Below are positions 24,907 to 43,829 of a stretch of 64,000 nucleotides of DNA, in pieces. The translations under genes and the position numbers were made by a program. Source of the stretch: a virus (lineage: Duplodnaviria; Caudoviricetes); IMG/VR virus record IMGVR_UViG_3300031992_000012, positions 64,001-128,000 of that record. One strand, 5' to 3'. Position 1 is the first letter of the stretch, and the number at the start of each line of letters is the position of its first letter. The notes under the pieces are model-generated. The model saw nothing but the letters and a program-made list of their open reading frames with translations, did not search any database and was not told the DNA's origin.

Positions 24907-26211
24907 ATGACTCAATCTGCCAAAGGAATAAAAGACCGCGCAAACTACGGGGATTTAAGCTCCCTGCGCACCGACATACCGCTCACGCTGGTACGCCAGC
25001 TTCATCGTGCCAAACGCGCCGGGACACACACCGATCTGCGCATCGGCACCAACGCCGGGATGTTCAGTTGGGCCATGCCCAAGGACCTACCGGGCGAGGG
25101 CGAGAAGCATCTGGCCATACGCCAGCCGCTGCACGACTGGAGCTACAACGACTTCGAGGGCGAGATAGGCAGGGGTTACGGCAAAGGCGTCGTCAGCCGT
25201 CTTGAGAAGAGCCCGGTCATCCTCCTGAAGAACGACCCGGGCCACATAATGTTCACACGCGGCGACACGCGGAACAGCCCTGTATACAACATGGTTCAGA
25301 CAAGGAACGGCAACTGGCTGGTCATGATGAAGGGCGAGAACATCCCGCTGACGGTCAGGACGTACAGCAAGGAGCATTTCAAGTCGATACCGCTGGACAA
25401 GGTGGCCGACATAATGGACGACAACGCAATCGCCACGCCGAAGCTCGACGGGGCGGGCGCCCTGGCCTCCCTCGGCGACCGTGGCGTGCGCGTCTTCGGA
25501 ATACGCCCGGACAAGGGCGGGAATCCCATAGAGTACACCGACCACATCGGCGGGCTGAGGGACCTCGAGATACCCGAGGACCTTCGCGGCCTTACGCTCA
25601 GGGGCGAGGTAGTCGCCGAGCGTGACGGGAAGATACTGCCCCCGCAGGAGCTGTCGGGCTATCTCAACAGCGCCTTGATGAAGGCTGCAGCTAGAAGGGT
25701 AGACGACGGCATAGGGCTGCGCATGGCGCCCCTGGCCATCGTGGGTGACAAGGACGACTACGACAGGAAGCGCATAGACGAGATAGTGCGGCGGCTTAGG
25801 TCGGGCAAGTTCATCAGCCTGCCGACGTACAACCGCGAGGCAGCCCTCAAGGCGATAGAGGCCATGCGCAACGGGACCCACCCTTTGACCAGGGAGGGCC
25901 TCGTTATTCAGCGTCCGGGCGAACGGCCGGTCAAGGCCAAGCTGACGGACGATTCAGACGTGGTCGTAAGGAACATCTTCCCGGCGGTTACGAAGGACGG
26001 CTCTAGAAGGGCCGGCGGCTTCGAATATTCGCTTCCGGGCAGCGACAAGATAGTGGGTCGTGTCGGCACGGGCTTCAGCCATGAGCTGCTGAGGGACATG
26101 CTCGACAACCCCGGCAAGTACATAGGACGCACGGCGCGTATACACCACCTCGGGCAGTACGACGGTGGCGCTTATCGGGCGCCTGGCTTTATAAGCATGA
26201 AGGAAGACTAG
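24907..26211 (+). CDS. LigD-type 3'-phosphoesterase fused to an ATP-dependent DNA ligase
   Basis: PE motifs QLHRA..THTDLR, SWAMPK, LAIRQPLH..Y.DFEGEI..GYGKG; ligase KLDG, LRGE, EGLVI, KAK; OB-fold GRVGTGF. Confidence 0.85.
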   Translation: MTQSAKGIKDRANYGDLSSLRTDIPLTLVRQLHRAKRAGTHTDLRIGTNAGMFSWAMPKDLPGEGEKHLAIRQPLHDWSYNDFEGEIGRGYGKGVVSRLEKSPVILLKNDPGHIMFTRGDTRNSPVYNMVQTRNGNWLVMMKGENIPLTVRTYSKEHFKSIPLDKVADIMDDNAIATPKLDGAGALASLGDRGVRVFGIRPDKGGNPIEYTDHIGGLRDLEIPEDLRGLTLRGEVVAERDGKILPPQELSGYLNSALMKAAARRVDDGIGLRMAPLAIVGDKDDYDRKRIDEIVRRLRSGKFISLPTYNREAALKAIEAMRNGTHPLTREGLVIQRPGERPVKAKLTDDSDVVVRNIFPAVTKDGSRRAGGFEYSLPGSDKIVGRVGTGFSHELLRDMLDNPGKYIGRTARIHHLGQYDGGAYRAPGFISMKED

Positions 26212-31822: not shown

Positions 31823-32139
31823 CGGAAAACCGCAGGATTTTTCTTAACGACGAGAAGGGCGTGTTCAAATTCTCTGTCGAGGCTTCTCTCGTGACGGACG
31901 ACAAATTCCCGCCGTTCTACAGAGTATGGCAGAACAACGCGCACGCTCTTCCAATCACCGTCAGATGGAACCGCCAGTGGGGCGTGCGTGTAAGGACGGG
32001 GGACGAGGAAAAGGGGAAGAGGCTGCTGATAATAGCGGCCCTTAAGGACACGGAGGACATGTTCATGAATCTTTCAAGACTTCTTAAAGGAGAACCGCAG
32101 AATGAAGATAACAACAATAACGGAACAGGACATTCTTAA
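31810..32139 (+). CDS. hypothetical protein (finger-less family relative)
   Basis: WGVRV..GDEEKGKRLL. Confidence 0.65.
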   Translation: MDGLTENRRIFLNDEKGVFKFSVEASLVTDDKFPPFYRVWQNNAHALPITVRWNRQWGVRVRTGDEEKGKRLLIIAALKDTEDMFMNLSRLLKGEPQNEDNNNNGTGHS

Positions 32140-32863
32140 GGCGCCGCCACAGGAGCTGTATTCGCTGCTGTCACTCGTGGCGCAAGCATGCTCGCTGTTC
32201 ACCCGGCTACTTCAATACCCGTTGCTGAACCTTGACGGCGAGGCTTGCCTGGGCGTGGAGCGCGTCGACATGAAGGACGGACGGTGGCAGTTCACGCTGA
32301 TGCTCTACGACAGCAGGGAAACCTGGTACGAGACCGGCGATTGCATGGAATGCACGAGGAAGGCGCTTGAGCATGTCAGGAACTCAATCGCGGCCTCCTT
32401 CCTCAAGAAGGTCTACCCTGACAGGAACATCGAGCTGATCGAAGGTCTTGTTGTGTTCGTGGGGCACAATGTCGAGCGGCTTGCCGATGCCAACGGCTGG
32501 CGGTACGACATGCTCGACGAGAACCGGCATCCCGACGACCTCGTCGAGATGGGCAGGGACATCGTGGCGCGCCTCAAGGAAAACGGGGAGCAGCGAATCA
32601 TCAAGGTGAACAACCCGGACACCCTGCAGTCAATCAACCTTCACGCGATGGACATGGATGTCTACGACAAGGTCCAGTTCATCCTCATGGAGGGCGACAA
32701 GGCCGTCGACGTCGGAAAGGACACCGACAAGCTGTTCGAGACATTCACGCCGTCTTTTGACAAGCTGCAGGCGCTTCGCACGAAGCTGCTTCATGAAAAC
32801 AAGTACAAACGCAATCCCGACAGGGAAAAGGAGGACAACATGGATGGACAGGAACAGATGTGA
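32102..32863 (+). CDS. protein with a degenerate ABC/AAA-ATPase-like C-terminal half
   Basis: LVVFVGHN (P-loop lacks GKS), DENRHP, QRIIKVNNP. Confidence 0.5.
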   Translation: MKITTITEQDILKAPPQELYSLLSLVAQACSLFTRLLQYPLLNLDGEACLGVERVDMKDGRWQFTLMLYDSRETWYETGDCMECTRKALEHVRNSIAASFLKKVYPDRNIELIEGLVVFVGHNVERLADANGWRYDMLDENRHPDDLVEMGRDIVARLKENGEQRIIKVNNPDTLQSINLHAMDMDVYDKVQFILMEGDKAVDVGKDTDKLFETFTPSFDKLQALRTKLLHENKYKRNPDREKEDNMDGQEQM

Positions 32864-33201
32864 GAACTGCGGATATTACGAAAATGCGGGCGGCTATTCC
32901 TATTGTCTTCGCCATTCGCCGATACTGATCGTCGACCCCGAGAAGGGGGCGCAGACACAGTGGGGCCGGACAGCCCCTAAAAGAGTGGTGCTCGGAATTC
33001 CGCGACGCCAAGCTGCACATACGTGGCGACAACTGCTGCCGCCACTGCCGCAACGCTTTCATAAGGGACAACGGGCAGCTTACATGCTGCAAGAATCCCC
33101 CGGCATTGCAGTTCAACAAGGCAAACACAATATGGCATCTATCCATCAGCGCCGACATGTGGTGCGGTGAATTCGAGTCAAAGGACGCCGACCATGATTA
33201 G
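32844..33201 (+). pseudogene. frameshifted Cys-rich two-repeat protein (paralog of 35341..35724)
   Basis: Frame 0 CENC..CLRHSP continues in the +1 frame as EWCSEF..CRHC..CKNPP..WCGEF; one extra base near 32974-32982. Confidence 0.65.
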
Positions 33202-33505
33202 GAAGACAAGCTATCTGCAGGAGGTGCCCTTCGTGCACTACGAGGGGCCGGGGTCGCTCAAGGACGTGCGCGCCATCGTGCGCATGGCCAACAGGCACGA
33301 CCCAATCTACGAGGTGGTGGCGAAGAAGGGCGAGGAGCCCTATGTCGCCTACTACACCGGATACCAGCATGGAAGCATCCGCCTGAAGAACGACTGCTTC
33401 CTTGTCTGGTTCGACAAGGAGCTCGTGGTCATGGACGCCATGACGTTCTGCCACAAGTTCGGAACCTACCGGCGAGTAGTGGACGAAGAGCATTACGGGA
33501 CATGA
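33194..33505 (+). CDS. hypothetical protein
   Basis: Coupled ORF; weak paralog of 34138. Confidence 0.7.
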   Translation: MIRKTSYLQEVPFVHYEGPGSLKDVRAIVRMANRHDPIYEVVAKKGEEPYVAYYTGYQHGSIRLKNDCFLVWFDKELVVMDAMTFCHKFGTYRRVVDEEHYGT

Positions 33506-33514
33506 GGAGGCCCA

Positions 33515-34141
33515 ATGGAAGAACTTAAATTCAACACCAAGGACGTCGGCCGCCTGAAGGAAGGCGAGATACGCGTAGCCGGAATCACGCTGCTGACCGG
33601 CGACGTGGATTTGTCCGACATATTCTCCGACATCATCATGAGCCCCGGGTCGTGCACGGTAGAGGGCGACTGCTCGCTCTCCGACAGGCCAGGCCCGGAC
33701 ATTTTTCGCGGCATCATCTACGGCAATGTCCGCATGGACGATCATGGAAACCCGCAGATAGAGTCGCCGGACTCGCTGTTAGGGAGAAGGACGTACGTGC
33801 TGCGCCAGCCCGAGGTGGGCCAGTACTATCAAATCGACCGGAACTACGGGCACTACATCTACCCTCCTAAGCAGCTCAAGATAGTCGAGGAGCTTGTGTC
33901 ACTGTTCAACAGCGGCGTGCGCATAATCGTGCTGTCAAACAGCGACTACGTCCTGTTCGGGCTGCGCATCGCGCTGAAGAACGGGCTGATAACGCCCTCC
34001 GACCTTTCGATCGTCTACTTTCAGGACGACGGACGTGCAATCGACTACGTCGGCATACGCTCCTACCCGGACGGGATGCTGGAGGACTGGCCGATGGGTT
34101 TCTTCGACACGTTTGACAAATGCCTTATGGAGCTAATGTGA
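33515..34141 (+). CDS. DUF3696-like, degenerate ABC-ATPase-derived protein
   Basis: ITLLTG (no GKS), LRQPE, YPPKQ, GVRIIVLSNSDYVLFGLRIA, DGMLEDWPMGFFD. Confidence 0.65.
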   Translation: MEELKFNTKDVGRLKEGEIRVAGITLLTGDVDLSDIFSDIIMSPGSCTVEGDCSLSDRPGPDIFRGIIYGNVRMDDHGNPQIESPDSLLGRRTYVLRQPEVGQYYQIDRNYGHYIYPPKQLKIVEELVSLFNSGVRIIVLSNSDYVLFGLRIALKNGLITPSDLSIVYFQDDGRAIDYVGIRSYPDGMLEDWPMGFFDTFDKCLMELM

Positions 34142-37340: not shown

Positions 37341-38528
37341 ATGACAGAACAGAACAACGACTACAATTGGACTGAGTTTCGCGCCATTGAGGAAGTGGCG
37401 CCTGCACCCGCATACCTAAACGACCAGGCGCTTCGCGGACTTGTAAGGGATATCGAACGCACACATTTCAGGAGGACCGCGCGGGAGTGGGCGGCGAACG
37501 TCACGGCGGGGGACACCCCGCAGGAATGGACGGTGGACGTAACGGCGGGCGACGCCGTGATAGAGGACACGGGCACGGCCGATGCGGCATTTGCCGCCGG
37601 CGACTTCTTCCGCGTCCGCAACCGCGAGGAAGGCGTAGGCAACGGCATCTACGTACCACGCCCGCTTATCAAATGGGCCGGCGGAAAGCAGAGGCTCATG
37701 CCGGAAATCGTCAAACGCCTCCCTGGCGGAATCGGCAAGCTGGACGGAAGGATAACAAAGTATGTGGAGCCCTTCCTCGGCGGCGGCTCCGTGTTCATAG
37801 AGATGCTGCACCATCCGTTCAGCGACCGGATAGTGTCCGACATAAACCCGGCCCTCATCAACATGTACCAGACCGTGAAGGAAGCGACCGACCGGGTGTT
37901 CTCGCGCCTGTACGAATTGGAGCGTGCGTGGAACGACCTTGATACGGAAGAGGAAAGAAGGGCCTGCTACAACGGCGTGCGTGACTCATTCAACACCTAC
38001 AACCCGCAGAGCGACATGGGAAGCCCCGAATGGGCGGCGGCCTTCATCTTCCTCAACAAGACATGCTACAACGGCCTGTACCGCGTAAACTCAAGGGGGT
38101 TGTTCAACGTTCCCATGGGAACCAACACTCACCTTGACTTCCGCGCCGGCGAGTACATGGGCTTCCGCTACGCCGTCAGGAACGTACGGTTTGAGTGCAG
38201 GGACTACATGGAGTGCCTGGACGACATCGACAGCCATACCTTCGTGTACATCGACCCGCCGTACCGCCAGCTTCCCGGAAAGAACAGCTTCACCGGCTAC
38301 ACGCCTAACGCCTTCACCGACGTCGACCAGGAGGGCGTGGCGCGCTTCTGCGACCTTATAACCGACAAGGGCGCAAAGTTCCTGCTGAGCAATAGCGACA
38401 CAGGCGACGGGTACTTCGAGAGACTTTACGAACGCTTTACCATCGAGCATATAAAGGCGCCACGCAGCATCAGCCGTGACGGCGCTACCCGAGTCAAGAC
38501 GGGCGAGATACTTGTGAGAAACTACTAA
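37341..38528 (+). CDS. dam: Dam-family DNA adenine methyltransferase with an N-terminal extension
   Basis: KWAGGK, YVEPFLGGGSV, LNKTCYNGLYRVN..G.FNVP.G, DPPY, LSNS. Confidence 0.92.
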   Translation: MTEQNNDYNWTEFRAIEEVAPAPAYLNDQALRGLVRDIERTHFRRTAREWAANVTAGDTPQEWTVDVTAGDAVIEDTGTADAAFAAGDFFRVRNREEGVGNGIYVPRPLIKWAGGKQRLMPEIVKRLPGGIGKLDGRITKYVEPFLGGGSVFIEMLHHPFSDRIVSDINPALINMYQTVKEATDRVFSRLYELERAWNDLDTEEERRACYNGVRDSFNTYNPQSDMGSPEWAAAFIFLNKTCYNGLYRVNSRGLFNVPMGTNTHLDFRAGEYMGFRYAVRNVRFECRDYMECLDDIDSHTFVYIDPPYRQLPGKNSFTGYTPNAFTDVDQEGVARFCDLITDKGAKFLLSNSDTGDGYFERLYERFTIEHIKAPRSISRDGATRVKTGEILVRNY

Positions 38529-38540
38529 GGAGGAAGAAGA

Positions 38541-39410
38541 ATGAACGAAAAGAAAGTTGCGGAAGAAATCGAGCGCGCAATAGACAATGTTATGGGCAGG
38601 TTCGCAAAGGAGCTGGCGGACGTCATCGTGGAGGCAATCTTCCCGAGCAGCACCATTGGGTCGATGTCGCCCAAGGACGCCAAGGGGCTCCGTGAGTTAA
38701 TTGAAGCGGTGGCCGACCGTCTGGAGGAGGTGGAGAAGGCGGAAGCTGAGCCAATCAAGGCGGATTTCGTCGACGGCATGCAGTCGGAGGCGGACGAAGT
38801 CTGGGCGGAGGAGCACCCGGACGAAACGCCAAAGGACAACACCTGGACAGGCGTTCACAACAGCCATCTGGAAGCTGCCCTCAAGCAGGAGCGCAAGGAG
38901 GAGATGAATAGGAAGCCCGACAAGACAGCGTGGAAATGCGGCTCCCCGTATTTAGCCGAACACGCAGACAACCCGCTTGACTCCCTGGCGGAGGACATGA
39001 GCAGGCGCAAACCGCGCGCCGAGGTTGGTGGGACTACCGATCGTTTCGGGCACAAACAGTGCATGAACTTCGCTGAGGCCATGAAGTCGCTGGAGCAGGG
39101 AATAGCGGTACGACGCTCCTCATGGCCTACCTACGACTTCATCTGGAAGCCAAAGCAGATACCGCTGCCTGAAGGATGCAGGTTCTCGCAAGTTGACCCC
39201 GTCATGAAGATGGCCATAAGCATACGCCCGGGCAATACATTCTTTGATTCCAATATCCTTGAGTACCGCCTTGAGTTCGACGAGAACAGGAAGCTCCAGG
39301 GGCGCGTCATAGCGGGGTTCGATTTCATGGGCATCGACGGCGGAGACCGCGACTGGGAGGAGTTCTTCGTTCCCGGCAAGGATTCTCCGGTTTGCGATAA
39401 AACTGAGTGA
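38541..39410 (+). CDS. protein with a C-terminal DUF2829/Tad2-like domain
   Basis: MNFAEAMKSLEQGIAVRRSSW...DRDW. Confidence 0.6.
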   Translation: MNEKKVAEEIERAIDNVMGRFAKELADVIVEAIFPSSTIGSMSPKDAKGLRELIEAVADRLEEVEKAEAEPIKADFVDGMQSEADEVWAEEHPDETPKDNTWTGVHNSHLEAALKQERKEEMNRKPDKTAWKCGSPYLAEHADNPLDSLAEDMSRRKPRAEVGGTTDRFGHKQCMNFAEAMKSLEQGIAVRRSSWPTYDFIWKPKQIPLPEGCRFSQVDPVMKMAISIRPGNTFFDSNILEYRLEFDENRKLQGRVIAGFDFMGIDGGDRDWEEFFVPGKDSPVCDKTE

Positions 39411-41537: not shown

Positions 41538-43829
41538 ATGCCGACCACAACAACAGTAGGACGCATAATGCTCGACGCCGCCCTCCCGCCATCGGCGAGG
41601 GGGCATTACGACGAGCTTAACAGCAAGGGCCTGTCCAAGCTCCTCACCTACATGGCGCAGGAGCACCCGGAGGACACGGCCGCGACTCTTCGCGCCCTTG
41701 TCGACGTCTCCCGTGACACCATCTACTACCGTGGACGTGACGCCTCCCTGGGTCTGGCCGATCTTGTCATGCCGCCGGAGCTCCAGAAGTACCGGGACTC
41801 CGTCCGTGACGAGGTCAGGCTCATAATGGAAGGGCCAGGTTCCGCCAAGGAGAAGCAGAAGCAGACTATAGCCCTGCTTATGAAGCGCATCGGGGAAATA
41901 CCCGACACGCTGCTCCAGAAGCTCCCGGAGGACAACGCACTCGCCATGCAGGTTCGATCAGGCGCCCGAGGAAACAAGAGCCAGCTAATGCAGACGCTTT
42001 TCGGCGACGTTCTTGTCGTAGACGCGCAGGACCGTCCGGTCCCTATTCCCTCGCTTCACGGATATGGCGAAGGCGTCACCCCGATGGAGTACTGGGCCGC
42101 CTCAAACGGGGCCCGTAAAGGCTCCGTGTCGGTCCAGTTCAGCACGGCTGAAGGCGGTTATTTCGGCAAGCAGATGAGCAACGTGGGCCATCGTATCGTC
42201 GTCACCTCCCGTGACTGCGGTACCACGCGCGGCATACCTGTCGACGCGGACGACGAGGACAACGTGGGCTCCGTTCTGGCCGCCGACGTCGGACCATACA
42301 AGGCCGGCACGATTATAACCAAGGACATGATGGGCAAGCTGGGCGACGGGAAAATCCAGGTTCGCTCGCTTGTGACATGCGAACAAGGAGACGGAGTGTG
42401 CAGCAAGTGCTGCGGCATGCGCGAGAAAGGGCGTCTTCCGGACATCGGAGACCCGGTCGGAATCGTCGCGACCCGTTCCATTTCAGAGCCTGTCACGCAG
42501 GCCGGCCTGAAGTGCCTTGACCCGCGCACCGAAGTGCGCATGGCCGACGGCTCCGTGAAGAAGCTGATGGACATGCAGATAGGCGACATGGTTCTCGGCG
42601 TCGACAAGGACGGCAAGACGTCGCCCGCCAAGGTGCTCAACGTCTATTACAACGGATACAAGAAGACAATCTGGTCTGTCTGGGTCAGCGAGGACGGCAG
42701 CGACGCCGCCAGCCTGGTCTGCACGCCCGACCACAAGTTCCTCTGCCTCAACGACGACAACGAGATCGAGGAACGACCAATAAAGGATATTACGCGGCTT
42801 CTTTCGCAGGAAGGCAAGCCGCTTCTGCTTATCGACTACATGTCGCTGGACGGTCCGTCCGAGACAATGGACATAGAGGTCGACAACAAGGACCACCTGT
42901 TCATGCTGGCGGAAGGCGTCAGCACATCCAACTCCAAGCACACCGGCGGCGTCGCCGGTTCGGACGACAAGCAGGTGTCCGGCTTTAAGGAAATGAATCA
43001 GTTCGTCCAGGTGCCCGAGAACTTCATCGGCGCCGCGACCCTGGCCAGCGAAGACGGCCTTGTAACGGCTGTCCAGGCCGCCCCGGCAGGCGGCTGGAAC
43101 GTGTCGATTGACGGAAAGATCAACTACGTCCCGGCGGGACGCAACGTCATCGTCAAACCCGGCGAGCGCGTGTACGCAGGCGACATGCTTTCAGACGGCA
43201 CGCCCAACCCGGCCGAGCTCACCAAGTATAAAGGTATAGGAGAGGGCAGGCGCTACTTCGTCGAGAAGTACCGCGAGCTGCTAAAGAAGAACGGCGCGGC
43301 CGTCCACCGCCGCAACATCGAGGCGCTTGCCCGTGGCTTCATCAACCGCGTGGAGATAGACGACCCGGACGGATACGACGGATACATAATGGGCGACGTG
43401 ACGCCGTACGACTCATTCGCGCATGACTACAGGCCGAGGCCCGGCTCCTTGAAAGCCGACCCGAAATCGGCCACTGGAATGTACCTGGAGCACCCGGCGA
43501 TGCACTACTCCATCGGCACAAGGCTTACACCCCGTGTCGTGGACGAGCTGCGCAAGGGAGGTGTGAACGAGGTCATAGTCAACAAGAACGAGCCCGTGTT
43601 CAACGCCAAGGTGGTCCGCGCACGTTCAATGCTTTCCACCGACCCCGACTGGATTACGCGAATGGCGGGGGAAAACCTCAAGAAGAACATGCTGGAAAGC
43701 GCCCGTATGGGAGCGTCCAGCACACCGGCCGGAACATCGTACTTCCCCGCGATGGCCAATCCGACGCAGATAGACAAGTATCTCGGAGGACGCCCACGCT
43801 CCACCGACACCATGTACACGGAGATTTGA
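41538..43829 (+). CDS. phage multisubunit RNA polymerase beta' subunit, C-terminal fragment (intein-containing)
   Basis: TTVGR, SGARG, Y.EG.T..EYW....GARKG, TAEGGY, DCGT, VRSLVTC..GVCSKCCG, VG..A.SISEP.TQ; lacks NADFDGD. Confidence 0.9.
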   Translation: MPTTTTVGRIMLDAALPPSARGHYDELNSKGLSKLLTYMAQEHPEDTAATLRALVDVSRDTIYYRGRDASLGLADLVMPPELQKYRDSVRDEVRLIMEGPGSAKEKQKQTIALLMKRIGEIPDTLLQKLPEDNALAMQVRSGARGNKSQLMQTLFGDVLVVDAQDRPVPIPSLHGYGEGVTPMEYWAASNGARKGSVSVQFSTAEGGYFGKQMSNVGHRIVVTSRDCGTTRGIPVDADDEDNVGSVLAADVGPYKAGTIITKDMMGKLGDGKIQVRSLVTCEQGDGVCSKCCGMREKGRLPDIGDPVGIVATRSISEPVTQAGLKCLDPRTEVRMADGSVKKLMDMQIGDMVLGVDKDGKTSPAKVLNVYYNGYKKTIWSVWVSEDGSDAASLVCTPDHKFLCLNDDNEIEERPIKDITRLLSQEGKPLLLIDYMSLDGPSETMDIEVDNKDHLFMLAEGVSTSNSKHTGGVAGSDDKQVSGFKEMNQFVQVPENFIGAATLASEDGLVTAVQAAPAGGWNVSIDGKINYVPAGRNVIVKPGERVYAGDMLSDGTPNPAELTKYKGIGEGRRYFVEKYRELLKKNGAAVHRRNIEALARGFINRVEIDDPDGYDGYIMGDVTPYDSFAHDYRPRPGSLKADPKSATGMYLEHPAMHYSIGTRLTPRVVDELRKGGVNEVIVNKNEPVFNAKVVRARSMLSTDPDWITRMAGENLKKNMLESARMGASSTPAGTSYFPAMANPTQIDKYLGGRPRSTDTMYTEI
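42513..42932 (+). mobile_element. mini-intein (140 aa, no homing endonuclease)
   Basis: Starts CLDPRTEVRMADG; block B CTPDHKF; ends DIEVDNKDHLF..GVSTSN followed by a Ser extein residue. Confidence 0.88.

Follow-up and report, generated by a model that had tools for sequence, protein, structure and literature searches.

The stretch of DNA analysed here (the window, 64,000 nucleotides) corresponds to bases 64001-128000 of the 205,081-base virus record IMGVR_UViG_3300031992_000012 (Duplodnaviria, Caudoviricetes), which is estimated to be 94% complete. Two of its open reading frames (ORFs), ORF A (P0009; 32102..32863, + strand, 253 aa) and ORF B (P0008; 33515..34141, + strand, 208 aa), had been taken in a preliminary description of the sequence for miniaturised, apparently dead relatives of the ATP-binding cassette (ABC) ATPases, possibly acting as decoys of host defence. 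Both are indeed present on the + strand at these positions and contain all the motifs that had been quoted for them. Our analysis identifies ORF B as a small, motif-dead homologue of NsnB with an ABC core and a DUF3696 tail, while ORF A is an orphan conserved in the phage clade, in which no likeness to ABC ATPases was detectable. NsnB is the middle subunit of Menshen, an anti-phage system composed of NsnA, NsnB and NsnC (Li et al., NAR 2025, PMC12065111, citing Millman et al. 2022).

Sequence relationship of ORF B to NsnB

The Pfam family DUF3696 (PF12476) was identified in residues 159-207 of ORF B (33989..34135, +; E-value 2.8e-7, 31.1 bits versus a cut-off of 22; 33.5 bits in the search of the phage's own genome), a region that contains both WPxGFFD and the terminal helix and that is invariant in 6/6 phage proteins. 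The PADLOC model of NsnB reported ORF B with an E-value of 7.6e-18, aligning residues 114-208 with profile positions 248-343 of 345. The runner-up in this library was PD-T4-4_A (4.8e-5), followed by two PDC candidates alone; the models of GajA, PtuA, AriA and Old gave no PADLOC match, and the non-NsnB ATPase families were outscored by NsnB by 13 orders of magnitude or more. The NsnB profile covers ORF B in part only, while genuine NsnB proteins are matched over positions 1-343 with E-values of 1e-105 to 1e-120. When the profile of the phage family was compared with that of NsnB (hhalign), a probability of 98.5% was obtained across ORF B residues 115-208; residues 5-29 were likewise placed in register with NsnB residues 4-28, with a score of 22.7, while the highest of 60 column shuffles reached 19.2. 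A sequence search of the PDB returned no meaningful match for ORF B. The tblastn search of plasmids identified "DUF3696 domain-containing proteins" that are 31-36% identical to ORF B residues ~95-208, most of which are encoded in three-gene operons (DUF262, DUF3696-ATPase and a protein of unknown function) whose products score as NsnA, NsnB and NsnC.

These comparisons bear out the description of ORF B, which was said to keep the skeleton of AAA_15/AAA_21-DUF3696 ATPases in order, with the motifs dead and the helical insert missing; the DUF3696, NsnB and fold matches (see below) agree on this. Its kinship to defence ATPases likewise stands, but the targets that had been named for it (Gabija/OLD, Septu, PARIS and AbiE) are imprecise: as judged from the sequence, the nearest family of ORF B is Menshen NsnB, rather than a component of Gabija, Septu or PARIS.

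Among the matches with a bearing on this family, PHROG 12026 (a 106-aa profile) aligned with ORF B residues 123-208 (E-value 0.0013). Two Nostoc plasmids (L005 and L006) carry NsnB-like DUF3696 genes without a flanking DUF262 or NsnC gene, adjoining instead HNH endonuclease genes and a gene for a Nif11-like leader peptide. NsnB-type ATPases thus exist also outside the canonical three-gene operon.

Predicted fold of ORF B

AlphaFold2 (AF2) run on the single sequence of ORF B gave no usable model (mean predicted local distance difference test, pLDDT, 32). With an alignment of 47 rows, in which the six phage proteins were joined by 41 NsnB sequences retrieved from genomes, the pLDDT rose to 79.3 and the predicted template modelling score (pTM) to 0.81, with residues 44-63 alone being poor. 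Comparison of this model with 48,161 PDB representatives reported ABC ATPases in all of the top 50 positions (Z 9.4-11.8), with 138-179 residues aligned and model residues 1-208 spanned. The best match was UvrA (7sh1_B, Z 11.8, 166 residues aligned); the retron Eco8 ATPase (9lp9_B) scored Z 11.4 over 179 residues and the OLD nuclease (6p74_A) Z 9.5, and SMC/RecN heads and nucleotide-binding domains of transporters were likewise among the top 50. Foldseek searches of the PDB also returned ABC ATPases, GajA and PtuA among them, with weak E-values (~1e-3). In the ESM Atlas, the neighbours of the model were AAA_15/AAA_21/DUF3696 clusters of 363-394 aa (TM-score by query 0.79-0.80; 194-195 residues aligned at 2.8-3.0 A), and the Atlas single-sequence model of ORF B (pTM 0.71) found the same neighbours as the AF2 model. 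The agreement of the Atlas and AF2 models therefore argues for an ABC core from end to end, from which the large inserts have been removed. The fold comparisons with Foldseek, which the preliminary description had suggested, and those with the PDB and the Atlas thus all lead to ABC ATPases. Together with the sequence matches, the models suggest that the phage carries in ORF B a derivative of an NsnB-type ABC ATPase that is reduced to half the size and non-catalytic.

Lost and retained motifs of ORF B

To map the motifs, NsnB columns conserved at 90% or more were placed on the phage family in a MAFFT alignment. According to Li et al., the Walker B motif of NsnB reads "EN", its Q motif is replaced by Arg, and SGG by GxG (PMC12065111), and the comparison is therefore specific to NsnB and not to ABC ATPases in general.

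Residues 1-43 (33515..33643, +) were assigned by hhalign and AF2 to the N-terminal β-hairpin, to ITLLTG as the first strand of the core, and to the helix that follows the destroyed P-loop. Of Walker A, G29 alone is kept; the columns of NsnB N30, G31, G33, K34 and S35 are gaps, and after G29 the phage family reads D-[VA]-D-L, so that the Lys and Ser of GKS are gone. Residues 57-61 (DRPGP; 33683..33697, +) are a probable remnant of the Q-loop equivalent (NsnB AERxGP): R58, which does not vary among the phage proteins, is aligned by MAFFT with the Arg of AERxGP, a tentative assignment in a segment with pLDDT <50 and outside the hhalign coverage. Residues 93-120 (33791..33874, +) comprise, according to the column mapping, the signature-helix remnant TYVL..P and the degenerate Walker B and D-loop. 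The columns of the GxG (GFG) signature are deleted, as are ~165 residues belonging to inserts 1 and 2. In Walker B, E271-N272 of NsnB is replaced by R109-N110, which is invariant in the phage family, P273-E274 by Y111-x, and H276 and H278 by Y114 and Y116. The tetrapeptide RQPE, which had been read as the Walker B region, is probably the result of a register error, as TYVL..P corresponds to NsnB TYVLP and hence to the remnant of the signature helix. The register in which RQPE equals ENPE requires a 15-residue insertion, while the nearly gapless register through TYVL..P and P117 = P279 is likelier; under either of them the Walker B position is without a conserved acid (R109, or R/C97 in the RQPE register). 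The degenerate H-loop, residues 137-149 (IIVLSNSDYVLFG; 33923..33961, +), falls where the hhalign alignment is of high confidence. Here ETHSDH of NsnB becomes LSNSDY, with H304 replaced by the invariant N142, and around it E302 by L140, H307 by Y/F145, and N310 by F148.

With the P-loop Lys, the Walker B acid, the H-loop His and GxG all lost, ORF B is therefore not expected to bind or hydrolyze ATP in the canonical way, and we predict it to be catalytically dead in the canonical ABC sense. The residues kept are TYVL..P, P117 and Q120 (the D-loop Pro/Gln), S143, D144, G149 and R151 (post-H-loop), and in the tail G187, W192-P193, G195-F-F-D198, L204 and L207, of which P193, G195, F196, F197 and D198 are invariant across the phage family. 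In this alignment the erosion is selective: catalytic columns are replaced, and columns of the predicted interface and the tail are retained.

Conservation and distribution of ORF B

ORF B has five phage homologues (208-209 aa, 66-94% identity) with shared synteny. The pairwise ratio of nonsynonymous to synonymous substitution rates (dN/dS) is 0.27-0.50, with dS up to 0.88, while for ORF A it is 0.25-0.40; both genes are therefore under purifying selection. These data bear on the reading of ORF B as a functionless, decaying relic of a captured NsnB gene, which could explain why its catalytic motifs are all lost and ~165 residues are gone. The conservation of the gene largely refutes it: the frame is intact and its length constant across six phage genomes, even where identity drops to 66%, dN/dS is low at considerable dS, and the interface and tail motifs are invariant. 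Moreover, the gene is preceded by a strong ribosome-binding site, a Shine-Dalgarno-like GAGGAGG read from the sequence at 33504..33510 (+), 4 nt 5' of the ATG and overlapping the TGA stop of the preceding 103-aa gene. We regard a relic as very improbable.

A word-indexed search of proteins of 114-366 aa retrieved the phage homologues alone and none among longer proteins, the pattern scan of viral contigs revealed no further relatives, and neither megablast nor tblastn searches with ORF B produced a match at E-value <=0.01 among 50,697 phage records. In ~800 bacterial genomes from two phyla, every match of ORF B belongs to a frame of 269-435 aa and is limited to residues ~101-208. Within what was searched, the short form of ORF B is confined to phage-derived sequences. 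When its C-terminal 99 residues were used in the tblastn search of phages, weak matches appeared, the best with an E-value of 2e-3; they correspond to hypothetical proteins of temperate-sized Vibrio phages (PQ189377.1, 6068-6313, 2e-3; OR762784.1, 5371-5658, 1e-2), and a set of 36.7-kb Klebsiella phages was reported with an E-value of 1e-2.

Predicted complex with NsnB and proposed mode of action

The preliminary description had also proposed to model complexes with defence ATPases. We modelled ORF B together with NsnB of a complete Menshen operon from a Bacteroidetes metagenome-assembled genome (L067), using our own alignments. The pair obtained an interface score (ipSAE) of 0.62, a mark reached in calibration by 58/80 solved complexes and by 2/110 mismatched pairs, while the best of three controls obtained 0.00; at least 85% of contacts agree between runs, and the partner pLDDT is at least 76. 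The predicted interface is the canonical, reciprocal head-to-head dimer face of ABC proteins, complemented by the DUF3696 helices. NsnB residues 272-283 and 303-318 contact ORF B residues 142-155 and 98-118, and the modelled contact includes the P-loop sites (NsnB 28-30, ORF B 29-34) and the terminal helices (NsnB 365-373, ORF B 197-207). The reciprocity is evident in ORF B residues 114-117, which are placed on the NsnB H-loop (304-306), and in NsnB residues 278-279, which are placed on ORF B residues 142-144. The elements that ORF B retains appear to be exactly those at the predicted NsnB interface, minus those that bind or split ATP.

For NsnB itself, Li et al. predict a tetramer, in which the canonical ABC dimer interface pairs the DUF3696 tails, clamping the inPIN domain of NsnC (PMC12065111). 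In their AlphaFold 3 models NsnC is situated between two DUF3696 tails in 23/24 systems (PMC12065111). We speculate that ORF B, made during infection, would pair with NsnB-type protomers of the host through the head-to-head ABC dimer interface. The resulting hybrid dimers would be unable to close on ATP and would present a foreign DUF3696 pair, and the NsnC effector might then be neither held nor activated properly, so that the defence would fail. ORF B may in this way be an anti-Menshen decoy that acts by subunit poisoning, a proposal that we favour tentatively and rate at somewhat below an even chance. The dominant-negative role that had been assigned to both proteins thus stays plausible for ORF B, with homology, dead motifs, purifying selection and the complex model in its favour, and falls for ORF A (see below).

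The same AlphaFold 3 models, and the fact that DUF3696 is the best-conserved part common to ORF B and NsnB, would also suit a different action, in which a homodimer of ORF B uses its paired DUF3696 tails as a sponge for the N-terminal inPIN domain of an NsnC-type nuclease, which would be sequestered or mis-regulated with NsnB untouched. We consider this improbable, as the N-domains of NsnC are hypervariable, so that one phage protein would have to fit a specific host variant, and as the neighbours of the D-loop and H-loop, which face the partner ATPase in the model, are kept as well.

Several points weigh against subunit poisoning of Menshen. The modelled NsnB is a stand-in from another organism and not the protein of the phage host; head-to-head dimers of ABC proteins have been solved often, so that the pass at 0.62 may reflect this likeness alone; and the calibration of the complex score holds only roughly for runs supplied with our own alignments. 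The NsnB rows in the AF2 alignment could have biased the fold of ORF B, a concern mitigated by the independent Atlas model, and the segment 44-63 is poorly modelled. No recent host donor was found in the ~800 bacterial genomes, where the identity to bacterial NsnB is 25-38% and limited to the C-terminal half. Finally, Menshen was rare when ORF B was used as a query (11/401 genomes of Bacteroidota and 1/401 of a Bacillota-type phylum). Altogether, the complex model supports binding of ORF B at the NsnB dimer interface as plausible, but does not show it.

Gene neighbourhood and genome content

The plausible genes around ORF A and ORF B are all on the + strand and form a dense array of small ORFs that reaches to a D12-class Dam methyltransferase (37341-38528). 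In scans of family libraries, the neighbours of ORF B in this block upstream of the methyltransferase were small proteins of no assigned function. The order ORF A (248 or 253 aa), 120-aa gene, 103-aa gene, ORF B (208/209 aa), 86-aa gene is conserved, with the Dam methyltransferase further 3' of the 86-aa gene also in related contigs from other samples; the 120-aa gene between ORF A and the 103-aa gene is absent from two relatives (L002/L003). At 34136-34141 the stop codon of ORF B overlaps the GTG start of the conserved 86-aa gene (ATGTGA), and the 4-nt overlap of these genes was likewise called in L002, L092 and L093. This arrangement suggests that ORF B and the downstream 86-aa gene may be translationally coupled.

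Many dead ATPase domains act as scaffolds. ORF B is one of a conserved series of small genes that abut closely or overlap, which would agree with a role of ORF B within the phage itself, where its dead ABC core could have been domesticated to scaffold or regulate a phage partner, e.g. a neighbouring small protein, or a part of a phage-borne exclusion module. Profile searches of the 205-kb genome revealed no NsnA and no second DUF3696 or NsnB-like gene; the NsnC model gave no match either, but it was silent in every control genome too, so that this is a weak negative. The sole other ABC ATPase of the phage is of the SbcC/Rad50 type, has no DUF3696 and is encoded ~70 kb away. We find such an internal role rather doubtful, if worth keeping beside the poisoning of NsnB. 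As for this ABC ATPase as the partner of ORF B, it is an unlikely candidate, being a 547-aa protein without DUF3696 encoded beside an SbcD-like nuclease.

The genes of this nuclease lie outside the window, at ~165,700-168,800 of the record, and follow in a row: an SbcD-like Metallophos protein (336 aa), a protein similar to the glycine-cleavage H-protein (137 aa; PF01597, E-value 1.4e-17), and the SbcC/Rad50-type protein. The gene of a lipoyl-carrier-type protein thus separates those of the two parts of a recombination nuclease. In the window itself, the gene directly 3' of the Dam methyltransferase (38541-39410, +) encodes a 289-aa protein without a sequence match in the PDB, in which residues 175-221 resemble Tad2 (Thoeris anti-defence 2) below the threshold (E-value 6.4e-4, 20.6 bits versus a cut-off of 25); it is possibly a further anti-defence gene near ORF B. 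Other genes of the window encode a 434-aa protein with a LigD 3'-phosphoesterase domain (24907-26211, +; E-value 3.2e-10) and a 763-aa protein in which a match to RNA polymerase Rpb1 domain 5 is followed by Hint/intein-like matches (41538-43829, +).

ORF A

ORF A is preceded by AGGAG, 9 nt upstream of its start, and its homologues, 82-88% identical, occur in the same gene order in related contigs. It had been described as showing the same erosion as ORF B, for which our searches give no basis: there is no match to any Pfam, PHROGs, PADLOC or NCBIfam family, its likeness to NsnB is at chance level, and the profile search of the PDB returned nothing. The best local hhalign alignment with NsnB does set RHP...QRIIKVNNPD of ORF A on LHP...VQIIIETHSD, i.e. 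in the register of the preliminary description. However, its score of 18.0 falls within the range of the shuffles (mean 15.5, maximum 22.8; P 0.11-0.13), and the alignment of ORF A with ORF B takes a different, incompatible register. An exhaustive phmmer search of 1.84 billion representatives found one cluster of relatives and one marginal match of 129 aa, and the Atlas model is unreliable (pTM 0.21), with no ABC ATPase among its listed neighbours. That ORF A is a second eroded ABC ATPase, and a second decoy, is thus hardly credible; it is a real, conserved orphan gene, apparently unrelated to ORF B and outside the mechanism proposed for it.

Comparison with known systems

To our knowledge, neither the in vivo mechanism of Menshen nor a phage countermeasure against it has been established. 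Our literature search found no published phage inhibitor of Menshen and no ABC-ATPase mimic acting as an anti-defence protein, and for DUF3696 the Menshen analysis was the sole relevant paper found. In the EVADES preprint, which covers 268 anti-defence proteins, the word ATPase is absent from the main text and subunit poisoning is proposed for AcrIB4/Cas11 only. A review of November 2026 lists as escapes from Gabija, PARIS and Septu only Gad1/Gad2 and tRNA-based ones, and Oad1, an inhibitor of OLD, is not described as ATPase-like.

Small viral proteins resembling the ORF B model, in part or over its full length, were found by Foldseek in BFVD: A0A8S5NJK7 (191 aa, Siphoviridae sp.) with an E-value of 1.8e-8 and TM-scores of 0.64/0.69, and, with E-values of 2e-4 to 1e-2, proteins from pf16 (Pseudomonas, 99 aa), phiRSL1 (Ralstonia, 117 aa), AR9 (Bacillus, 131 aa) and GAP32 (Cronobacter, 111 aa). 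Feature neighbours of ORF B in the ESM Atlas also include virus-only clusters of 123-175 aa. The BFVD proteins are short, viral, without assigned function and matched to ORF B by fold, while sequence similarity to ORF B was not detectable in the phage tblastn search (E-value <=0.01). These structural matches are a hint that ORF B may belong to a wider, undescribed class of truncated, dead copies of OLD-ABC defence ATPases that recur in several large phages, either poisoning the oligomer or stealing the effector. Such a class would span the ORF B clade, perhaps with the proteins of phiRSL1, AR9, GAP32 and pf16, and would include the first inhibitor of Menshen; we think this extension unlikely, but not far-fetched.

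Should ORF B prove to inhibit Menshen, it would tell whether the dimer face or the DUF3696 tail is the important surface of NsnB, and the poisoning of ABC-ATPase subunits would join the repertoire of anti-defence strategies. Phage genomes might then be screened on this principle for shortened versions of PtuA, AriA, GajA and related ATPases. Should it not inhibit Menshen, ORF B would still exemplify the domestication of a defence ATPase by a phage, for a different purpose.

Compared with NsnB, ORF B has the same ABC core fold, the same register of the N-terminal hairpin, the D-loop Pro/Gln, the post-H-loop Arg and the C-terminal WPxGFFD/DUF3696 helix, and among all defence-family hidden Markov models that of NsnB matches it best. 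It differs in size (208 aa versus ~345-430 aa), in the absence of inserts 1 and 2 as well as of the GxG signature, in the replacement of GKS in Walker A, of the Walker B Glu and of the H-loop His, and in being encoded by a phage, with no NsnA or NsnC genes nearby or found in the genome (the search for NsnC being weak). GajA, PtuA, AriA, the retron Eco8 ATPase and the OLD nucleases belong to the same fold class, but they are without the DUF3696 tail and their sequence models miss ORF B. Each of these OLD-ABC defence ATPases forms dimers that hold an effector (PMC12065111). Among phage proteins, the closest parallels in principle are AcrIB4, for which replacement of Cas11 has been suggested ("complex subunit poisoning"; bioRxiv 10.1101/2025.06.06.658234), and the orphan antitoxins of T4-like phages, captured defence components that counter DarTG1 (PMC11825919). 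In both cases, as proposed for ORF B, a phage homologue of a component of host immunity would take the place of that component; ORF B differs in that it would mimic an ABC ATPase and is predicted to be catalytically dead, besides being truncated. Mimicry or capture is therefore an established principle; what would be new is its extension to an ABC defence ATPase, with ORF B as a phage-encoded homologue of a defence subunit in which the catalytic residues are lost and the interface residues are kept.

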